Shown piece by piece: positions 12,552 through 40,865 of a stretch of DNA of 40,865 bases. A model generated the notes under the pieces. It was not told the DNA's origin, ran no database searches, and saw nothing but the letters and a program-made list of their open reading frames with translations. The stretch is from a phage. Position 1 is the first letter of the stretch, and each line of letters opens with the position of its first letter. The DNA lies in the sequence record PQ785851.1. The stretch is one strand, 5' to 3'. A program made the translations under genes and the position numbers.

Positions 12552-15524
12552 TTAGTTGTAACCGCGCAAGAATGCATACGCCCTGCCGCCCTGCTGGAAT
12601 GACTTGCTGATTTCCTCAGCCACGATGACCTTGACTCCAGATTCTATCGCCTTAGCATCATTACTGCTACTAACTCCAGAGTTTACGTTAACCGTCACTC
12701 CACCAACACTGACATTCGTACCGCCGACAACTCCACCATTAGCATATCCAGATGGCCCACCAACAGCGCCGCCATTAGCATATCCGCGCATCAGCTTGTA
12801 CAGATTTTTAACACCAATCCTGTTGGTTGCTTCTTTGGTGAATACAAACTCACCTTTGTGAACAGTACCGGCAGGTTGATACTTCCCGCCATCACCAGTA
12901 TAGCCGCCGCCAGCAAAACCAAGCGCACTACCAATTGAGCCAATCGCGCCACCAGTGCCGCCGAAGCTACTTAAACTTGACTCAATCGCCTTAACAATAA
13001 GAAGCTGAGTTGCAATTCTTGCAATCTGCTTGAGTATGTTTACAGTAAACTCCCTGAAGTTTGTTTCTCCAGTGGTTACAAGGTCAGTAATCTGGTCAGT
13101 AATGCCTTCAAATACCTTAGTGGTTAAACTTCCGGCAATTGAGAAAGCATCTGTCGCGCTCTCTGCCCAATTTGCGAAGGATGACTGCACACCAGCAAGC
13201 CAGTTTTCACGTAGCGCATCCTCTTGAGCGTAGAAGTTACGCCTTGCTTCGAGTAAAGCCTGAAAATCAGTATCATCAACAGACCCACCTTTGTTTATCT
13301 GATTGGATTGAAGTGCCTGAAGCTCTTTTGCTCTTTGCTTCTCCCTGTCAGATAAATTAGCAGCAAGTGAAACATTACTTGCTTCATTCTTAATCTGCAC
13401 AGTCTTCTTGAGGTTGTCATCAAGTAACTTGTTTGACCTCTCCTGAAGCACAATCTGGTCACCAAGCTCAGCATTCTGTTTAGCTTGTTCAAGAATGATA
13501 TTCTTCTGCGCAAGTAGCTTGGACTGTGATTTTGTAAGCGTACCATCCGCTTTCCTTTGCTCAAGTATTGCAAACTTAGCTTCTTCCTGGAATAGCTGCT
13601 TGCGTTCGTTGCTTATTACATCATTTATCGTCCTGTGCTCTTGTAAAACCTTCAGCTGAGCCTGAAGAGCAAGAACGCCAGATTCATAAGATAAGGTTAA
13701 ATCCATTTCTTCTTTTACTGCCTTGTTCCTCTCACTCCTCGCTTTCTTTATCCCATCAAGCTCATCAGCTAGCGCCTTTCTTCTTGCTGCAAATTCCTTA
13801 TCTGTTGATGGTTTGTTGCCAGTTAGGTTGATATCGCTGTTTTCCTTAACATATCCCATCTCTCCCTTTCTGATCCTAGCATCTCGCTCAGCGATGCTTT
13901 TTGCTAACTCCTCGTTTTGCTTCTTGGATGCATCGACAACCTTTTGCTGCTCAGCAATTATGCCGTTACCTACATCACCAAGCCCCGGGATTGACTGAAG
14001 CGTCTTGGTTGCAGAGATAGCAAATTCACCAAGAAGAATGTCGCCTGAGTTTATAAACGACCTTATCTGCTCAATCGTACCAGCAACAACGTCAGTTATT
14101 AAGTTAAGAGCACCAAGTGTGCGCTTGCCGATGCTATCCCAAATTTCGATTACAAACTTCCTGAAGCTATTCCATGCACTTTCAAGGGGGTTAAGGCTTA
14201 GCGCAACATCTTCCAGCCTGTTCTCCATAACGTTAGCGAATAGCTCAGTAGCTGCCGTTACAGCCTCTGTCTCTCCTGCTGTCTTCCTCAAGTTCTCTAT
14301 GTGTTTTAACTGTCCGGACTGAAGGAAGTTAAACTGCTTATCGAGTGCAATCAGACCTTGAATGGGGTCCTTTGTAATCTGATCAAAGTACCCAAGAATA
14401 GTTTTCGAGTCAGTTGATGTTACAGCTGCCCATTGCGCGGTTGCCTTAGTTATCTTGTCTATCTGTGTAAGAGTTAGATTTCCGTTTGCTACAAGGCTAT
14501 TTGCTATCTCCTGAATAAGTCCGCGCGTGGCTAGTGTTGATCTCTCAATTACATCAACAACCTGATTTATCTGCGCTGTAGACGTGATAGTTGAGTTTCC
14601 AACCAGCGTTATCGTTGATGCCAGTCCGCGAGTGTTCTTGTCAGCCTGATAAGCCGCAACACCGAGAGCGCCAAGAGCCAAGCCCAAAGTCCCAACAACT
14701 GCTGTTAATGGGTTGATAGCTGCTAATGCAAACCTTGCCGTGTTAGCAATACCACCAAAGCTATCCTTAATCTGCCCACCCTGCTGAATTGCAATGAGCC
14801 AGATGGGGATGCCACCAGCAAGAGAGGTTCCGATATCTGTAATCTGAGCTGGTAGCTGTCGGATTGCTTGCTTGTACTGCCCGGCGCTTAAACCTGACTT
14901 AACAAAAGCGGAGCTTTGCTTCTGCAATTGAACAGCAGATGCCTCAGCGGACTTACTGATCCTGTCTATAATCGGCGCTGCCTGGTCACTAACGCCTAGC
15001 TGAGCAGCCTTAAGTTGAAGAAGTTCAGTCCTTGTTAAACTTGCAGCGTTAGCCTCGTTCTCAAGATATTGAATGAACTTCTGCGCCGATGCTGCTGCCT
15101 TTTCTTTATCTATTGATGCCTGGAGCGCGGCCCTTCCTTCTTCGCTAAGAGCAGCCTTAGACCTGTTGAGCTTATTGATTTGAGTTTCAATAACAGATCC
15201 AAGCCTAAAGAATTCTTCGTCAGGAACGATTCCTGCTGCAAATGCCTTATCTAATTCAGTTGCCGCTTTCTGCAAATTCTGGAATTTAGCGGCGGTTGGG
15301 TCTATGGCTTGCTGAAGTGATGCGAAAGATTTGCGTTGCTCCTCAAGCTGCCTTGCGGTATCTCTAGCTTGAGTTTTGGCGACAAGCTCAGCATTAACGA
15401 ACTCACTAATCCCAGAGGCTGCTTGTTGGTTTGCCTGCCTGAACTTTTGTAGGGATTGTGTACCCCTGTCTACTTGCGAGACGTCGACCGCTAGCGTGAT
15501 GCCAGCAATTTCATTAGTTGCCAT
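12552..15524 (-). CDS. tail tape measure protein
   Basis: About 990 aa; long coiled-coil region, Gly-rich hydrophobic segments; likely start ATG at 15524 with RBS GGAGACAAT (track ORF is open to 15575). Confidence 0.85.
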
Positions 15525-15561
15525 ATTGTCTCCATAATAAAAAAGCCACCCCGAAGGATGG

Positions 15562-15813
15562 CTATCGCTTAGCATTCATCATATCTAAAGCTTTCGCTTC
15601 AAGTATTCTGATATCGTTAAGTACCATTTCGTCATCATCTATTTTATAGACTTTGAACAAGAATGGAAGGCAATTATAGTCAAGGCCAGTAGCGCCTGAT
15701 GCGCCAACTCTCCATTGTGTGGACATTGCACAGTATACGTCCCAGCTTTGCATCATTGTTTCATCAAAGTGCAACTCTTCAGGCTCCTCACCTTCATAGT
15801 CGGAACGTTTCAT
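15562..15813 (-). CDS. tail assembly chaperone, frameshift-extension (T-like) portion
   Basis: ORF is in the -1 frame relative to 15876..16190; the frame is open from the slippery site A_AAA_AAC (15877-15883) to this ORF. Confidence 0.5.
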
Positions 15814-15875
15814 TCCGATAGCTTCGAGTTCGGCGTCAGTTGGTGGTGACTGGTATTGTAAGTATACTGCGCGTT

Positions 15876-16190
15876 TTAGTTTTTTACTCGCTGACCTGCA
15901 AGTGCTTTCATGTAGCTATCCATCAGTGATGGCACGGCGCCTGGGAAAAGGTTTGCAAACTCATCAACGTTCTCATCGTTAAATGGCTCTTCTAAGTCCC
16001 AGTCAGAGCAGATTTCATTAATCAGTTCCTTAGTACTGAAGTTTTCACGATTAAGAATCTCCTGCAACTCGGATGATTTCTTGTGCTTAACTGTCAATAC
16101 AACTTCAGCATCTTCACCATTCGCCAGTTGAAACTTAACTGGGAGTTTAAAGTCAGGCAGCGCCTTGAGTGAAAGTTTAAATTTGGCCAT
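15876..16190 (-). CDS. tail assembly chaperone (lambda G-like)
   Basis: 104 aa, acidic, immediately upstream of the tape measure gene; ends in heptamer A AAA AAC. Confidence 0.55.
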   Translation of the reverse strand: MAKFKLSLKALPDFKLPVKFQLANGEDAEVVLTVKHKKSSELQEILNRENFSTKELINEICSDWDLEEPFNDENVDEFANLFPGAVPSLMDSYMKALAGQRVKN

Positions 16191-16235
16191 CTCGTTATCT
16201 CCTTTGTTTATGATTTGGTGATTGTATCACATAAA

Positions 16236-16616
16236 TTATTTGGTGTGGAAGTGCGCTGCTTTATTTGCAAACTCATCAGTTGCTGAGCCGATTGACCAAG
16301 GTTTAGTCATTACTTCATTAATTTCTTTTTGGCTAACATCAGCCTCGCGATTGAATTCTTTGTTAACAACCTTAACAATCAGAGTGTAAATTATAACATT
16401 ACGTTCGCATTCAATTTCTGAAGTTTTCATGATTGCATCTCTCATCTCATGAGCATCAATTGCACTAACTTTTGATAACTCACCATGAACGAGACTGAAG
16501 CTCATGTTCTTACACATGTTTACAGCTTTTGCCATGTCCATTTCTTTCTGTTTAGTTTCACCAATGTTACAACCAGTTAAAGCAAGTGCGATTACTGCGG
16601 CGATGATAGCTTTCAT
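16236..16616 (-). CDS. lipoprotein moron inside the tail gene cluster
   Basis: 126 aa; signal peptide MKAIIAAVIALALTGC with lipobox LTGC; has its own promoter-like module upstream, which follows a terminator. Confidence 0.6.
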   Translation of the reverse strand: MKAIIAAVIALALTGCNIGETKQKEMDMAKAVNMCKNMSFSLVHGELSKVSAIDAHEMRDAIMKTSEIECERNVIIYTLIVKVVNKEFNREADVSQKEINEVMTKPWSIGSATDEFANKAAHFHTK

Positions 16617-16699: not shown

Positions 16700-16727
16700 T
16701 AAAAAACCCTCCGAAGAGGGTTAATTT
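16700..16727 (-). terminator. rho-independent terminator after the major tail gene
   Basis: Hairpin AACCCTC-ttcg-GAGGGTT followed by a T-run on the minus strand. Confidence 0.6.
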
Positions 16728-17387
16728 TTATGCCAGTTCAGAAGCTACAGAACTCAGCCTTCCGCGGATGGACACCGCGATGGATACGGTTTCAATTTCG
16801 TTAACACCAATGCTTGGGGTGTCGTTGAAAGCGATAGTGCCGGACTGTAAACGCATCTCCTGTGCACGCGGCACGAACAGACGAATTGCAACAACCTGAC
16901 CTGACTCATCGTAGTTACGCAGAATCGGATATACCGGGTTGGTGTATTCGTGCGCGAACGTGTAGGTGTTAGTTACAGCAGACTTATAGGTTGGAATCTG
17001 CTGTTCACGGTCATCGGACAAACACTGGAAGTTAACGAACTGCTGTTCACCACCGTCAGTGGATACGTCCTGAACACAAGGAACCTCAAACCAGCTAAGA
17101 ATCTTAACCACTTCGCCAGTTAAACCGGCCGGGAACTTGGTGGTGTTGGAGGTATCAATACCTTCAACGGTTACAGTTGAACCAGATACTGCGGTAACGC
17201 GAACTTGCTTGTCAGCCAGCAGGGTTGAAGCTGAGCTGGTAAACAGAAGGTAATCACCGCGAGCAATATCTTCAACGCTGGATAAAGTTAAAACAGGAGT
17301 AGCGGCGTTGGAAATCGCGGTTACGTCGATAGTAGCTCCCCTGGTGCCTTCTACGAAGACCTGAGTGCCGTTACTAAGATGGGCCAT
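16728..17387 (-). CDS. major tail protein (by position)
   Basis: 219 aa; immediately upstream of the G/T chaperone pair; followed by its own terminator. Confidence 0.5.
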   Translation of the reverse strand: MAHLSNGTQVFVEGTRGATIDVTAISNAATPVLTLSSVEDIARGDYLLFTSSASTLLADKQVRVTAVSGSTVTVEGIDTSNTTKFPAGLTGEVVKILSWFEVPCVQDVSTDGGEQQFVNFQCLSDDREQQIPTYKSAVTNTYTFAHEYTNPVYPILRNYDESGQVVAIRLFVPRAQEMRLQSGTIAFNDTPSIGVNEIETVSIAVSIRGRLSSVASELA

Positions 17388-36436: not shown

Positions 36437-36851
36437 TTCTAATCATCTCTGCGAATGCAGCAAGAAAACCATCTCTGCCGTAGGCAACTCCTGCGAAACC
36501 GCCTGATTCCCTTACGCTTTTTAGGAATGACTTTTGCTCATCACTTACTGGGCTAGCCTGTGTTTTCCCAGCCCTCTTTAGCTCTATTGCGCCAAATGGA
36601 TAACTTCCTCGTAATGACTCAGGTATTAGAAATAGGCAGTCTGATACGCCTTTAAGAAGTCCTTTAGCCTGGTCTTTCCTTGCCTGACCAATGCTCTTCA
36701 TTGATTCATTAACTGTGTGCCAGTAAACAACCTGCGGATAGTTATACTTAACCCAATCAGAGCAAAAGATTTGTTCGTCGTCTTCCTTCGGGCATGACTT
36801 CACCGGGCCGCCATAGAACTCGAGGTAGTCAGTTTTGTCTGTAACTTTCAT
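36432..36851 (-). CDS. VRR-NUC domain nuclease
   Basis: 139 aa; ...GVSDCLFLIPESLRGSYPFGAIELKRAGKTQASPVSDEQKSFL... resembles the VRR-NUC core. Confidence 0.55.
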   Translation of the reverse strand: MKVTDKTDYLEFYGGPVKSCPKEDDEQIFCSDWVKYNYPQVVYWHTVNESMKSIGQARKDQAKGLLKGVSDCLFLIPESLRGSYPFGAIELKRAGKTQASPVSDEQKSFLKSVRESGGFAGVAYGRDGFLAAFAEMIRK

Positions 36852-38842
36852 AACAATTCTCCAAAATTCTTAAAAGCGATTATATCTTTACCTTTGCCGT
36901 TTTTTCTATGTGTAACCTGCACTGGTGCGCGGAACTTATCTACGTTCGCCATAATCATTCTCGCATTGCGAAGTCTGCCAATTCTTGTGGCTTCAGCGCG
37001 ATTCTCTATATGAGCAAGGCAGAAGTTCTTCCATAGCACGCTGCAAACTCGATGGTCAGACTCGGGGTTGAAGAATTCCCATGCATTAAACCGATCTCCG
37101 TTATGAGCCATGATATTGTACTTAACAACAATTCCGGTTTGATTCTTACTTAAGCCAACTTGAAAATCATAAACACGAAGGTAATCACCACGACGATACA
37201 TCTTACCTGTAAGGTTAGCATTGGGGTCTTTAAGCATCTCTCCGCACTCTCGACAGACCTTCGCTGCTATATCATTGCGAGTCCCGCACCCTTTTTTGAT
37301 AATAGCCTTTGTCTGCAGGTCTGTAATATCTTCACAAACTGTAAAAGTAAAGAAGTGCTCACATCTCTTTCCGTCAATCTTATTTCCGCATCTACGAGCA
37401 AAAGGCGAATTCTCGTATGAGCAAATTGGGCACACTCGAACCTCTGAATCACCATTGCGTGATGACTTAAACTTCTCGGCCTGAATCTCTTCAATTATTG
37501 GATCAAAGTAAAGTTCAGCCATATCATCAAGTGCGCCAGCAAAGTCCAGGACTAAGTGGTCATCCTTTTTCATACCAATTTCAATATGTTTCTTCTTGAG
37601 AATTCGCATTCCACGACCAAGAAGCTGAATCATTAATGTCAGGCTTCCAATCTTGCGGAGTATGACACTTGTGTCCCACGGAGGCACCGAAACGCCTGTG
37701 GTTAAGCATCCAATCTGAAAAATAATCTTGTACTTTCCGGTCTGGCATTCATCTAGAATTTCCCTTCTCTTCTTCTCACCAGTGGAATCAGTGATTATCG
37801 CGTAAGGATAACCATCTGGTAGAGCAGCAGCCGCTTCATCGCAGTGCATTTTACCAGCGCAAGTTACCAGTGCGGCGTTACGTGTTTCAAGTATTTTGAT
37901 AACGAACCCCATTATATTTTGTGTCATCGTCTGGTTTTCGTGAATCTTTGCAGCCATTGCATCCATTTCTTTTTTGCTGAAATCCTTAACGCCATCACTT
38001 CCATCAGGTGCAAACTCGCTAAGGTCATAACCCAAATCACCAACCTCACCGTAAACAGTTGGAACAACGAATCCCAAATCAACCAGGTAACTGGTCGGAA
38101 CTTGCATTACCGTCTTGCGCCAGAAGCCACGAATATTTGGGTTACTAACTACAATGTGGTCGTTGTTACGATACGGGCTACCAGTCAAGCCGAATATACG
38201 GAGCTCGCGACCATACTTCTCTTTGCAGCGGCGCTTCATTTCAGTGATGATTAGTGTGTACTGCGCACGACCAGTTCCAAGCAATCCGGTATTCACTCCA
38301 TCCTTGAAAACCATTTCGCCTTTCTTGGTGCTCATTTGCTCAAATGTCTCTTCGTTCTCTTCAGCTTCTACGATATCCATGTGGTCCACCATGTGTGCCT
38401 CATCTATTGCGATAACTGCCGGAACATAGTCACCAAGCCCCTTGAACAAGCCGTTTGCCGCCGTTCCTTCACTTGCCACTATAGTTGGGTAGTAAACAGA
38501 TTTAACGTTAAGGCCAGCGCAATATACGCTATTACGGATACCGAAGTTACGGAGTTCTTCAGCATTCTGGCTGATGATTTCTGACTGGCGAGAAAGCACC
38601 ATGTAAGGAAGGCCAAGCTGCTCCATGCGTTTACCAATCATGGCAAGAATGATTGTCTTACCTGCCGATACCGACAGGTCTGCGATGAACGGAGCTTCGT
38701 ACTTAGCAATATTCTTGCCGATTTGGTCGAATGTCACGCACTGGAATGGATACGGCGTAATATCTCCAAACTGATAGTCTCTCTGAATCTGCTTAATCTT
38801 TTCTTGGTCAAAGTTTGCCACTAAGCGTTCTACTGGAAGCAT
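36848..38842 (-). CDS. SF2 (DEAD/DEAH-like) helicase with C-terminal Cys-rich region
   Basis: 664 aa; Walker A ...SAGKT..., Walker B VIAIDEAHMV; C-terminal clusters CPICS...C...C and C..C. Confidence 0.75.
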   Translation of the reverse strand: MLPVERLVANFDQEKIKQIQRDYQFGDITPYPFQCVTFDQIGKNIAKYEAPFIADLSVSAGKTIILAMIGKRMEQLGLPYMVLSRQSEIISQNAEELRNFGIRNSVYCAGLNVKSVYYPTIVASEGTAANGLFKGLGDYVPAVIAIDEAHMVDHMDIVEAEENEETFEQMSTKKGEMVFKDGVNTGLLGTGRAQYTLIITEMKRRCKEKYGRELRIFGLTGSPYRNNDHIVVSNPNIRGFWRKTVMQVPTSYLVDLGFVVPTVYGEVGDLGYDLSEFAPDGSDGVKDFSKKEMDAMAAKIHENQTMTQNIMGFVIKILETRNAALVTCAGKMHCDEAAAALPDGYPYAIITDSTGEKKRREILDECQTGKYKIIFQIGCLTTGVSVPPWDTSVILRKIGSLTLMIQLLGRGMRILKKKHIEIGMKKDDHLVLDFAGALDDMAELYFDPIIEEIQAEKFKSSRNGDSEVRVCPICSYENSPFARRCGNKIDGKRCEHFFTFTVCEDITDLQTKAIIKKGCGTRNDIAAKVCRECGEMLKDPNANLTGKMYRRGDYLRVYDFQVGLSKNQTGIVVKYNIMAHNGDRFNAWEFFNPESDHRVCSVLWKNFCLAHIENRAEATRIGRLRNARMIMANVDKFRAPVQVTHRKNGKGKDIIAFKNFGELL

Positions 38843-39461: not shown

Positions 39462-40385
39462 ATGCATCACGATAAGAATGAAGTTTTGTCAAAAATGAAG
39501 GGCATGTGGTCAAAGTTTTACGAATCTCACATGGGCTGGACAAAAGAAAACCTTAGCAAGAAACACGGGCCATGCCCATACTGCTTTGGCACTGACAGAT
39601 TCAGATTTACCGACGAAATAGGCAGTGAAAAAGGAAATGGCTCGGCAGTTTGTTCGAAATGCGGAAGTGACTCCGGTATAGGATGGGTCATGAAGTGCAC
39701 TGGATCGTCCTTCGCCGATTCAGTAAATTTGCTTGGTGACTGGCTGAACTTAACACCAATTGAGGTTATAGTTAAAGCAAACAAGCAAGCATCCAGAACT
39801 CATCGTTATAAGATGGGCGCTCAAGTAGACCATGAAAAAGTTTTGGAGGTCATGGGGAGAACTCAGCGAGTTGACTCAAGTCCACTCACGACATATGAGG
39901 GTATATACTCTGAATCTGGTTTTGATGTTGGTATAGCTAAAGATGGTTCAATGATTCATGCCGTGCCTTGCTCCATGGTTTATGAGGATGGGCTTGGTGA
40001 TGAGTTCTGTAACGTAATGTTTATTGATGAGGATTCAAATGTTAAGTTCCTTGCTGGTGATTATACTCGTGATTCTGTTGCTGTCATTGGTTCTAGGCAG
40101 GACAATAGTTATACTTATGTTGTTGACAATTATATTGATGGCGTACGTGTTCACCTTGCTACTGGGGGTCGCGAGGTGTTTGTTGCTTTCTCCTGTTACA
40201 ATATGGAGATGGTTATACACCGCGACAAGTCAAGGAAGTTCAGAATTGCTTGCCATGATTATGATATCGATATCCTTGCTGTTGCTGACGATCGCAATGT
40301 TGATGTGGTGATTCCCAATGACGGTAAGTCATTTAAAACAGGCATACGCAAGAAAGTGTACAAAGCCAACGACTTAATAAACTAA
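39462..40385 (+). CDS. DNA primase (zinc ribbon plus TOPRIM-like)
   Basis: 307 aa; Cys pairs CPYC...CSKC; acidic TOPRIM-like segment ...ACHDYDIDILAVADDRN... Confidence 0.6.
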   Translation: MHHDKNEVLSKMKGMWSKFYESHMGWTKENLSKKHGPCPYCFGTDRFRFTDEIGSEKGNGSAVCSKCGSDSGIGWVMKCTGSSFADSVNLLGDWLNLTPIEVIVKANKQASRTHRYKMGAQVDHEKVLEVMGRTQRVDSSPLTTYEGIYSESGFDVGIAKDGSMIHAVPCSMVYEDGLGDEFCNVMFIDEDSNVKFLAGDYTRDSVAVIGSRQDNSYTYVVDNYIDGVRVHLATGGREVFVAFSCYNMEMVIHRDKSRKFRIACHDYDIDILAVADDRNVDVVIPNDGKSFKTGIRKKVYKANDLIN

Positions 40386-40407
40386 CCTCCTTCGGGAGGT
40401 TTTTTAT
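40384..40407 (+). terminator. rho-independent terminator after the primase gene
   Basis: Hairpin CCTCC-ttcg-GGAGG followed by TTTTTTATT. Confidence 0.6.
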
Positions 40408-40430
40408 TGCATTAAAGATGGTAGAATTAG

Positions 40431-40454
40431 TTTTAGCAAATTGTGCTATTTTAC
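40431..40454. promoter_or_regulatory. inverted copy (i) of the conserved 22-bp element, upstream of the tail-fibre gene
   Basis: Plus strand reads TTTAGCAAATTGTGCTATTTT; a TG-n-TATTTT extended -10 lies 19 nt before the ATG at 40471. Confidence 0.35.
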
Positions 40455-40470
40455 AAATGGAGACCTTACA

Positions 40471-40865
40471 ATGGCAATTTATGACGCTGGAACAGCCAGC
40501 CTGGCAGCTAACGGCACTGTAACTGGTGTTGGGACTACCTGGATGGCTCCGCTTACGCTGATTCGTGTTGGCGCCACTATTGTTTTCAAGACTGAACCAG
40601 TGAAGATTTACACTATCTCTGAAATCATCAGCGACACGCAGATTAATGTTTACAACCCTAATTCTGAAACCGTTGCTGCTGGAACTGGTTACGCCATTCT
40701 TCTTCATGATGGTATTACAGTTCAGGGTTTGGCACAGGACGTAGCCGAGACGCTTAGATTTTATCAGTCAAATAATTATGTGAGCGGTGGTGATGATGGG
40801 AATGTAAAATTAGAGAACGGAGGAACAGGAGCTAGTACAGCACCTGAAGCGCGTAACAACCTCGG
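40471..40865 (+). CDS. tail fibre-like protein, N-terminal part (continues into 1..743 across the circular junction)
   Basis: ATG at 40471 with RBS GGAG; ORF runs off the window end in the same frame as the open frame at the window start. Confidence 0.5.
   Translation, partial: MAIYDAGTASLAANGTVTGVGTTWMAPLTLIRVGATIVFKTEPVKIYTISEIISDTQINVYNPNSETVAAGTGYAILLHDGITVQGLAQDVAETLRFYQSNNYVSGGDDGNVKLENGGTGASTAPEARNNL

Follow-up and report, generated by a model that had tools for sequence, protein, structure and literature searches.

In the lambda G/GT system (Levin, Hendrix & Casjens, 1993; Xu, Hendrix & Duda, 2004, 2013, 2014; all as summarised in PMC5009743), frameshifting between G and T is low-level, with a product ratio of 30:1 (PMC5009743). 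In a 2026 preprint, it is treated as standard knowledge that programmed frameshifting yields a long and a short TAC isoform. Among phages closer to the one studied here, the tape measure chaperone of Citrobacter phage Stevie has been described as having a 'conserved translational frameshift' (PMC4319613), and a frameshift is described likewise for E. coli phage U136B (PMC8104045). In the Stevie record (KM236241), CPT_Stevie16 is a two-piece joined CDS over the identical GTAAAAAACTAA. Outside phage tails, IS1 insA-insB' is a proven E. coli shift on A_AAA_AAC, with no established stimulator and a small amount of fusion (PMC4066793).

We analysed a phage chaperone pair in a stretch of 40,865 nt (PQ785851.1, 'the window'). 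Escherichia phage TR1 (Drexlerviridae, Braunvirinae, Christensenvirus) shares 99.2% identity with the region, and other Braunvirinae share 72–90%. The pair very probably uses the low-efficiency programmed -1 ribosomal frameshift of T1-like siphoviruses, giving a 209-aa G-T fusion. Such a site is already known for T1-like phages, and we regard the records that leave G and T unjoined as an annotation gap, not as a discovery.

The chaperone pair and its neighbours

The genes around the pair, all on the minus strand, are as follows.

16728..17387, minus strand: gene of the major tail (tube) protein, on the upstream side of the pair (Pfam Phage_tail_3, 229 bits; phrog_584)
16199..16204, minus strand: Shine-Dalgarno (SD) sequence AAGGAG of G (anti-SD duplex -8.7 kcal/mol, top 0.85% of background windows)
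15876..16190, minus strand: G-like tail assembly chaperone ORF, 104 aa, the normal translation product (ORF list; Pfam; TR1 annotation 'tail assembly chaperone')
15562..15813, minus strand: T part (DUF1799), 83 codons from an ATG plus a stop (Pfam PF08809; separate gene 'TfmS' in TR1)
15544..15563, minus strand: intrinsic-terminator-like hairpin with a T-run, overlapping the T stop, with the start of the tape measure gene about 20 nt further downstream
12552..15524, minus strand: tape measure protein gene, 990 aa, ATG at 15524 (TMP_2, 164 bits; Tape_meas_lam_C, 71 bits; start as in TR1)

G matches Pfam PF08748 (Phage_TAC_4) with 113.7 bits (E=8e-33, gathering cutoff 21.1) over profile positions 1–124 of 124. 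T matches PF08809 (DUF1799) with 53.0–53.5 bits (gathering cutoff 26), and with the linker between the two halves included the match covers profile positions 2–80 of 80. PHROG 17368, a profile of 213 positions, spans both chaperone halves, with G at 1–107 and T at 131–211. When the -1-frame residues that precede the T-frame ATG are added to T, its score rises from 131 to 178 bits and its match grows to 100–211. Since the match takes in the linker, the members of this profile include fused G-T sequences with the same linker. A sequence match to solved structures gave nothing below E=0.99.

The order Phage_tail_3, G, T and tape measure matches that of TR1, T1 and Stevie, and lambda M-like and L-like minor tail proteins follow downstream of the tape measure gene. 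The sequence-only reading had placed a G-T-type chaperone pair just upstream of the tape measure gene, and the domain matches bear this out: Phage_TAC_4 and DUF1799 lie between Phage_tail_3 and TMP_2/Tape_meas_lam_C. The ORF list starts the tape measure gene at ATG 15575 (minus strand), a position within the terminator and the last part of T. The real start is likely ATG 15524, which has GGAG upstream (SD -6.4 kcal/mol) and is the start in TR1, not 15575. The SD of the tube protein gene is -5.6 kcal/mol.

Several other elements flank the pair. The hairpin at 15544..15563 reads AGCCATCC-TTCG-GGGTGGCT followed by a T-run and is strong; T1, EC3a, AHP42 and Stevie all have an annotated terminator at this position. 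It could lower expression of the tape measure protein relative to the chaperones by attenuation. A second terminator-like hairpin, at 16705..16722 (minus strand), directly follows the major tail protein gene. At 16221..16249 (minus strand), in the 3' end of a lipoprotein ORF just upstream of G, there is a promoter-like site, TCCACA-17-TACAAT with an extended TG. Together these two elements suggest that the chaperone pair may receive transcriptional input of its own.

The lipoprotein ORF is an extra small ORF between the major tail protein gene and G (16236..16616, minus strand, 126 aa, with a lipoprotein signal). It has an LALTGC lipobox and a match to Pfam LPAM_1 just under the cutoff. A search for a PHROG match to this ORF found none, and among 50,697 phage records it is present only in TR1. 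In other Braunvirinae the small ORFs found here are different ones, and T1 and Tempevirinae have none. The spot between the tube gene and G looks like a moron insertion slot. The product could be a superinfection-exclusion lipoprotein.

Slippery site and reading frames

The G-like ORF runs from 16190 to 15876 on the minus strand and its 3' end reads ...CAG CGA GTA AAA AAC TAA. The site has four parts.

15879..15885, minus strand: slippery heptamer A_AAA_AAC, made of the last two sense codons of G and the third base of the preceding GTA
15876..15878, minus strand: G stop codon TAA, adjoining the heptamer with no gap
15879..15915, minus strand: overlap in which both the G frame and the T frame are open, from the translation of 15562–15915; 40 nt including the stop
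15814..15879, minus strand: fusion linker LKRAVYLQYQSPPTDAELEAIG, in the -1 frame between the heptamer and ATG 15813

Read in the G frame, A_AAA_AAC has the X_XXY_YYZ register. No stop interrupts the -1 frame between 15915 and 15564..15562 (minus strand), a stretch that takes in both the heptamer and ATG 15813. A shift must fall within 15879..15915, the overlap that is open in the G frame as well as in the T frame. A tandem slip on the heptamer is predicted to yield a fusion of 209 aa.

These results bear on most of what the sequence-only reading had said about the site. Its X_XXY_YYZ heptamer at the G end GTA AAA AAC TAA is confirmed in register, and its -1 frame is indeed open through the ATG of 15562–15813, from 15915 to the stop at 15562. 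The site had been put at 15876–15883; the place is right, while that range holds the stop and five of the seven heptamer bases and is 2 nt off the true 15885..15879. The -1 frame had been read as 'KKLKRAV...', which is the correct raw translation of that frame; the junction made by ribosomal slippage would instead be K-N-L, not K-K-L.

As a background for the heptamer, we counted in-frame X_XXY_YYZ heptamers in every ORF of 80 aa or longer on either strand of the window. The total is 42 in 14,668 codons, or 0.29% per codon, which gives a chance expectation of 0.037 heptamers in the 13-codon G/T overlap. One of the 42, the A_AAA_AAC of G, has a -1 frame that outruns the 0-frame stop, and does so by 103 codons; for the remaining 41 the -1 frame is shut before the 0-frame stop. 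Chance is thus a poor explanation for the heptamer at the end of G.

Other candidate motifs were considered. G has one other in-frame heptamer, TTTCCCA, 21 codons before the stop; we rejected it, as it lies outside the open stretch of the T frame and its -1 frame is shut after 8 codons. Two more in-frame copies of A_AAA_AAC occur in the window, in the ORFs at 38842..36848 and 40707..40333 (both minus strand), with -1 frames shut after 3–5 codons. No fusion is possible from such frames, and these copies are therefore presumably incidental.

Conservation of frame, motif and linker

We compared the site at 21 loci from phage records, drawn from Braunvirinae, Tempevirinae, Tunavirinae (with T1 itself), Rogunavirinae, Kyungwonvirus and Webervirus, together with phages of Ralstonia, Pseudomonas and Stenotrophomonas whose proteins are about 30% identical. 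A further 80 loci (78 distinct sequences) came from IMG/VR. The T-homologous frame is -1 to G at 21/21 phage-record loci and at 79/80 IMG/VR loci. The exception, contig L066 (IMGVR_UViG_2974632794_000001, 1200-1225), carries a slippery run of five As, A5 and not A6, and T is thereby placed at +1 to G. This is most likely a homopolymer sequencing error and otherwise a real 1-nt deletion mutant. As a tblastn query, the fusion matched 1139 phage records, and among the matches listed that span both halves, all 46 are in two pieces.

This breadth bears on whether the heptamer fell by chance at the junction of a decayed or split gene, pseudogene-like and with no programmed recoding. Nothing specific speaks for such a junction, save that only one of 22 annotated relatives' records carries a join. 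The expectation of 0.037 heptamers and the single extended -1 ORF among the 42 speak against it, as does an arrangement that over 1000 phage records share, at protein identities as low as about 30%, a conservation incompatible with a recent frameshift mutation. No relative with G and T in one frame was found among the 21 phage-record and 80 IMG/VR loci. We consider a chance junction extremely improbable.

The motif itself takes a few forms. NNA AAA AAC with an immediate stop occurs at 14/21 phage-record loci and in phage Stevie, and the three distant phages (Ralstonia, Pseudomonas and Stenotrophomonas) have G_GGA_AAC with the stop directly after. Two forms contain no full heptamer: the Webervirus G end reads GCA AAA GTT TAA, with the tetramer A_AAA (L007, L011, L012 and L018, ~718-727), and that of Rogunavirus AHP42 reads GCA AAG GTC TAA, with the tetramer A_AAG (L015, ~706-715). 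Both retain the -1 arrangement and the conserved linker. In IMG/VR, A_AAA_AAC with the stop occurs 50 times, the Webervirus form 24 times and the AHP42 form five times. The motif abuts the stop at 17/21 phage-record loci and 50/80 IMG/VR loci, and lies one codon short of it at all other IMG/VR loci among the 79 with T in the -1 frame.

Since Webervirus and AHP42 lack the full heptamer, the exact slip mechanism is not uniform across Drexlerviridae. Presumably these phages use the tetramers A_AAA and A_AAG, and the site or its efficiency varies within the family. Given the tetramer hierarchy A_AAG > U_UUY > C_CCY > A_AAA (PMC4066793), the Rogunavirus and Webervirus variants are plausible as weak sites. 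Across the subfamilies that carry it, A AAA AAC TAA is unchanged (the Webervirus and AHP42 forms differ), while the codons just 5' of the heptamer are free at synonymous sites (GCA/GCG/GCT/GCC, GGT/GGG/GGA/GGC, CAG/CAA/CAC and CGA/CGG/CGC). The codon before AAA is GTA, GCA or ACA, and its third base, the X of the heptamer, is always A.

The run of six As at 15885..15880 raises the alternative of transcriptional slippage, in which RNA polymerase adds an A within the run so that some mRNAs encode ...VKK-LKRAV... in one frame. One added A would give the same downstream frame, and the contig with one A different indicates a run that is length-labile at least in sequencing or replication. Efficient transcriptional slippage in bacteria needs runs of about 8–9 or more. 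Six is short by this measure, and isolated runs of exactly six A or T occur at 25 other places in the window. The homologous sites of the distant phages, G_GGA_AAC, have a run of only three As and those of Webervirus a run of four; such runs cannot support slippage by the polymerase, while ribosomal slippage fits. The strict X_XXY_YYZ register and the conserved third-position A are likewise features of ribosomal and not of polymerase slippage. Polymerase slippage is, in our judgement, highly improbable at this site.

The window has no T-frame start codon before 15813, so the linker can be reached only via a frameshift. Among 12 diverse Drexlerviridae, pairwise differences in the 69 nt after the heptamer number 330, 140 and 808 at T-frame codon positions 1, 2 and 3, and the linker peptide LKRAVYL.Y...PTD.EL...G is conserved. 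The codon of linker residue 1 begins with the last heptamer base, and the tblastn match to the T-frame peptide starts at this residue at 80/80 IMG/VR loci. This pattern of substitution indicates that the linker is under coding selection in the -1 frame. ACG-M12 and EC3a have a GTG 9 nt past the G stop, which we examined as a start for the linker and rejected; the codon is GTA in the window and GTT elsewhere, and is not conserved.

T could instead be an independent gene that starts at ATG 15813, as in the 'TfmS' annotation of TR1, with the heptamer incidental. An ATG is present in the window and in Braunvirinae and Rogunavirus relatives (15/80 IMG/VR loci), gene callers annotate a separate CDS, and the coding sequence of ACG-M12 by coincidence contains GGAGG 8 nt ahead of its ATG. 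In the window, ATG 15813 has no SD: its anti-SD pairing is -0.2 kcal/mol (70th percentile of background), against -8.7 for G. The homologous codon is Leu at 62/80 IMG/VR loci (TTA 40, CTT 14, also CTA, CTG, TTG and CTC) and TTC (Phe) at 3/80, and at these Leu and Phe loci the first T-frame ATG comes 119–146 nt past the G stop, inside the conserved domain. These codons indicate that ATG 15813 is not a conserved start, with the result that gene callers put 'T' starts at many positions or call no gene.

The 22 codons before the ATG, conserved as protein with a third-position substitution bias and no upstream in-frame start, also run counter to an independent T, as do the PHROG profile that takes in the linker and the many records in which no gene can be called for the T region. 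We therefore think it very unlikely that T is an independent gene. Since the window does have a T-frame ATG, some free T is possible, and Braunvirinae with this ATG may make some alongside the fusion. The proposal of the sequence-only reading that the slippery site joins the two ORFs appears sound in view of a linker that is -1-coding, an ATG that is not conserved and homology to the annotated frameshift of Stevie.

Mechanism, efficiency and comparison with known systems

We infer that the shift occurs in this phage, as well as its efficiency and the roles of G and GT in assembly. Most ribosomes would stop at TAA after making G (104 aa). A minority would slip by -1 on A_AAA_AAC, tRNA-Lys moving from AAA to AAA and tRNA-Asn from AAC to AAA, either in tandem in the P and A sites or with tRNA-Asn in the P site and the stop waiting in the A site. 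After the slip, the -1 frame would be read as CTA AAA CGC... to give the 209-aa G-T fusion. On the model of lambda gpG/gpGT, the tape measure protein would be coated by G and by the G portion of the fusion, the T part would recruit the major tail protein, and neither G nor GT would end up in the virion.

RNA structure prediction downstream of the heptamer, which the sequence-only reading had offered as a check, did not reveal a stimulator. The minimum free energies of the 111 nt and 59 nt downstream folds are no better than those of shuffles (z = -1.2 and -0.7), and an RNAalifold consensus of 14 relatives contains 0 pairs. A weak 7-bp stem 6 nt after the heptamer in the window was discarded, as relatives would pair different segments. 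A search for an upstream SD-like stimulator as in dnaX, in the 15 nt 5' of the heptamer, gave an anti-SD pairing of -3.2 kcal/mol (29th percentile), which is not above background.

In E. coli, A_AAA_AAC is far less shift-prone than A_AAA_AAG (PMC5009743). With a weak heptamer and no RNA stimulator found, shift efficiency is expected to be low (a few percent or less), and it could be very low.

The sole conserved context feature of the shift site is the adjacent stop codon. A stop codon 3' of the site reportedly can raise -1 slippage in E. coli (Horsfield et al., 1995), and the abutting TAA may be a termination-pause stimulator. The motif lies at the very end of G in every relative examined and no RNA stimulator was found; on these grounds we tentatively suggest, as a possible but doubtful mechanism, a termination-coupled P-site slip of the last tRNA during slow binding of release factor, with the stop as the stimulator. 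If so, the mechanism would be unlike the internal tandem slip of lambda, and the tetramer-only variants (A_AAA_G and A_AAG_G) would be tuned versions of one mechanism. A weak heptamer set against a stop throughout the family would also provide a natural data set for low-level E. coli frameshifting that works with no dedicated stimulator.

For annotation, we suggest a joined G-T CDS, 16190..15879 plus 15879..15562. The records of TR1 and 19 other inspected relatives have no join, with G and T separate or T uncalled. The lambda RefSeq record also has T as a separate CDS with no join. In RefSeq and PHROGs (phrog_569, phrog_680 and phrog_17368), homologues of G and T are widely named 'tail length tape measure protein', a practice that leaves three consecutive CDS sharing one name (e.g. 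NC_019404 13504..17152).

The site resembles IS1 in its A_AAA_AAC, its E. coli host, the lack of a stimulatory RNA element and, as predicted for the window, a low-efficiency shift that sets a low ratio of fusion to short product. The IS1 product, in contrast, is a transposase, unrelated to the chaperone. In E. coli dnaX, gamma and tau arise at A_AAA_AAG, which has an SD-like element on its upstream side and a hairpin downstream. The A-rich heptamer and tRNA-Lys are common to dnaX and the site in the window, as the -1 tandem slippage would be. They differ in that dnaX combines a high-efficiency motif with two stimulators, whereas here Z is C and neither stimulator was found. In addition, the shift shortens the dnaX product and would lengthen the chaperone product.

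Stevie is also a member of Drexlerviridae. Its 315-nt G ORF ends in GTA AAA AAC TAA and its linker begins LKRAVYL...; its G is homologous (55% identity between the window G and a Stevie-length IMG/VR contig, L041), as is its T. Unlike the window, which belongs to Braunvirinae/Christensenvirus, Stevie belongs to Tempevirinae and has TTA (Leu) where the window has the ATG. The frameshift is annotated in Stevie but not in TR1, the closest relative of the window.

An hhalign comparison of an 11-sequence G alignment with lambda gpG gave a probability of 0.05 and E 0.83 (a weak test, with a single sequence as template). As no sequence similarity to lambda gpG was found, the pair is filed under its functional class and Phage_TAC_4/DUF1799 and not with the gpG sequence family of lambda. 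The arrangement is nonetheless that of lambda gpG/gpGT in most respects. The gene of the major tail protein and that of the tape measure protein enclose two ORFs that overlap, the second of them in the -1 frame and in lambda with no start of its own (the T frame of the window, however, carries an ATG). G has an X_XXY_YYZ heptamer close to its 3' end, and the shift is expected to be low-level and to need no RNA stimulator. The tail genes downstream in the window are also lambda-like (M, L and the C-terminal domain of the tape measure protein). The two sites differ in that lambda has G_GGA_AAG five sense codons before the G stop, whereas here A_AAA_AAC abuts the stop. On this comparison, T1-like phages would follow the near-universal strategy of setting a G:GT ratio for tail assembly.
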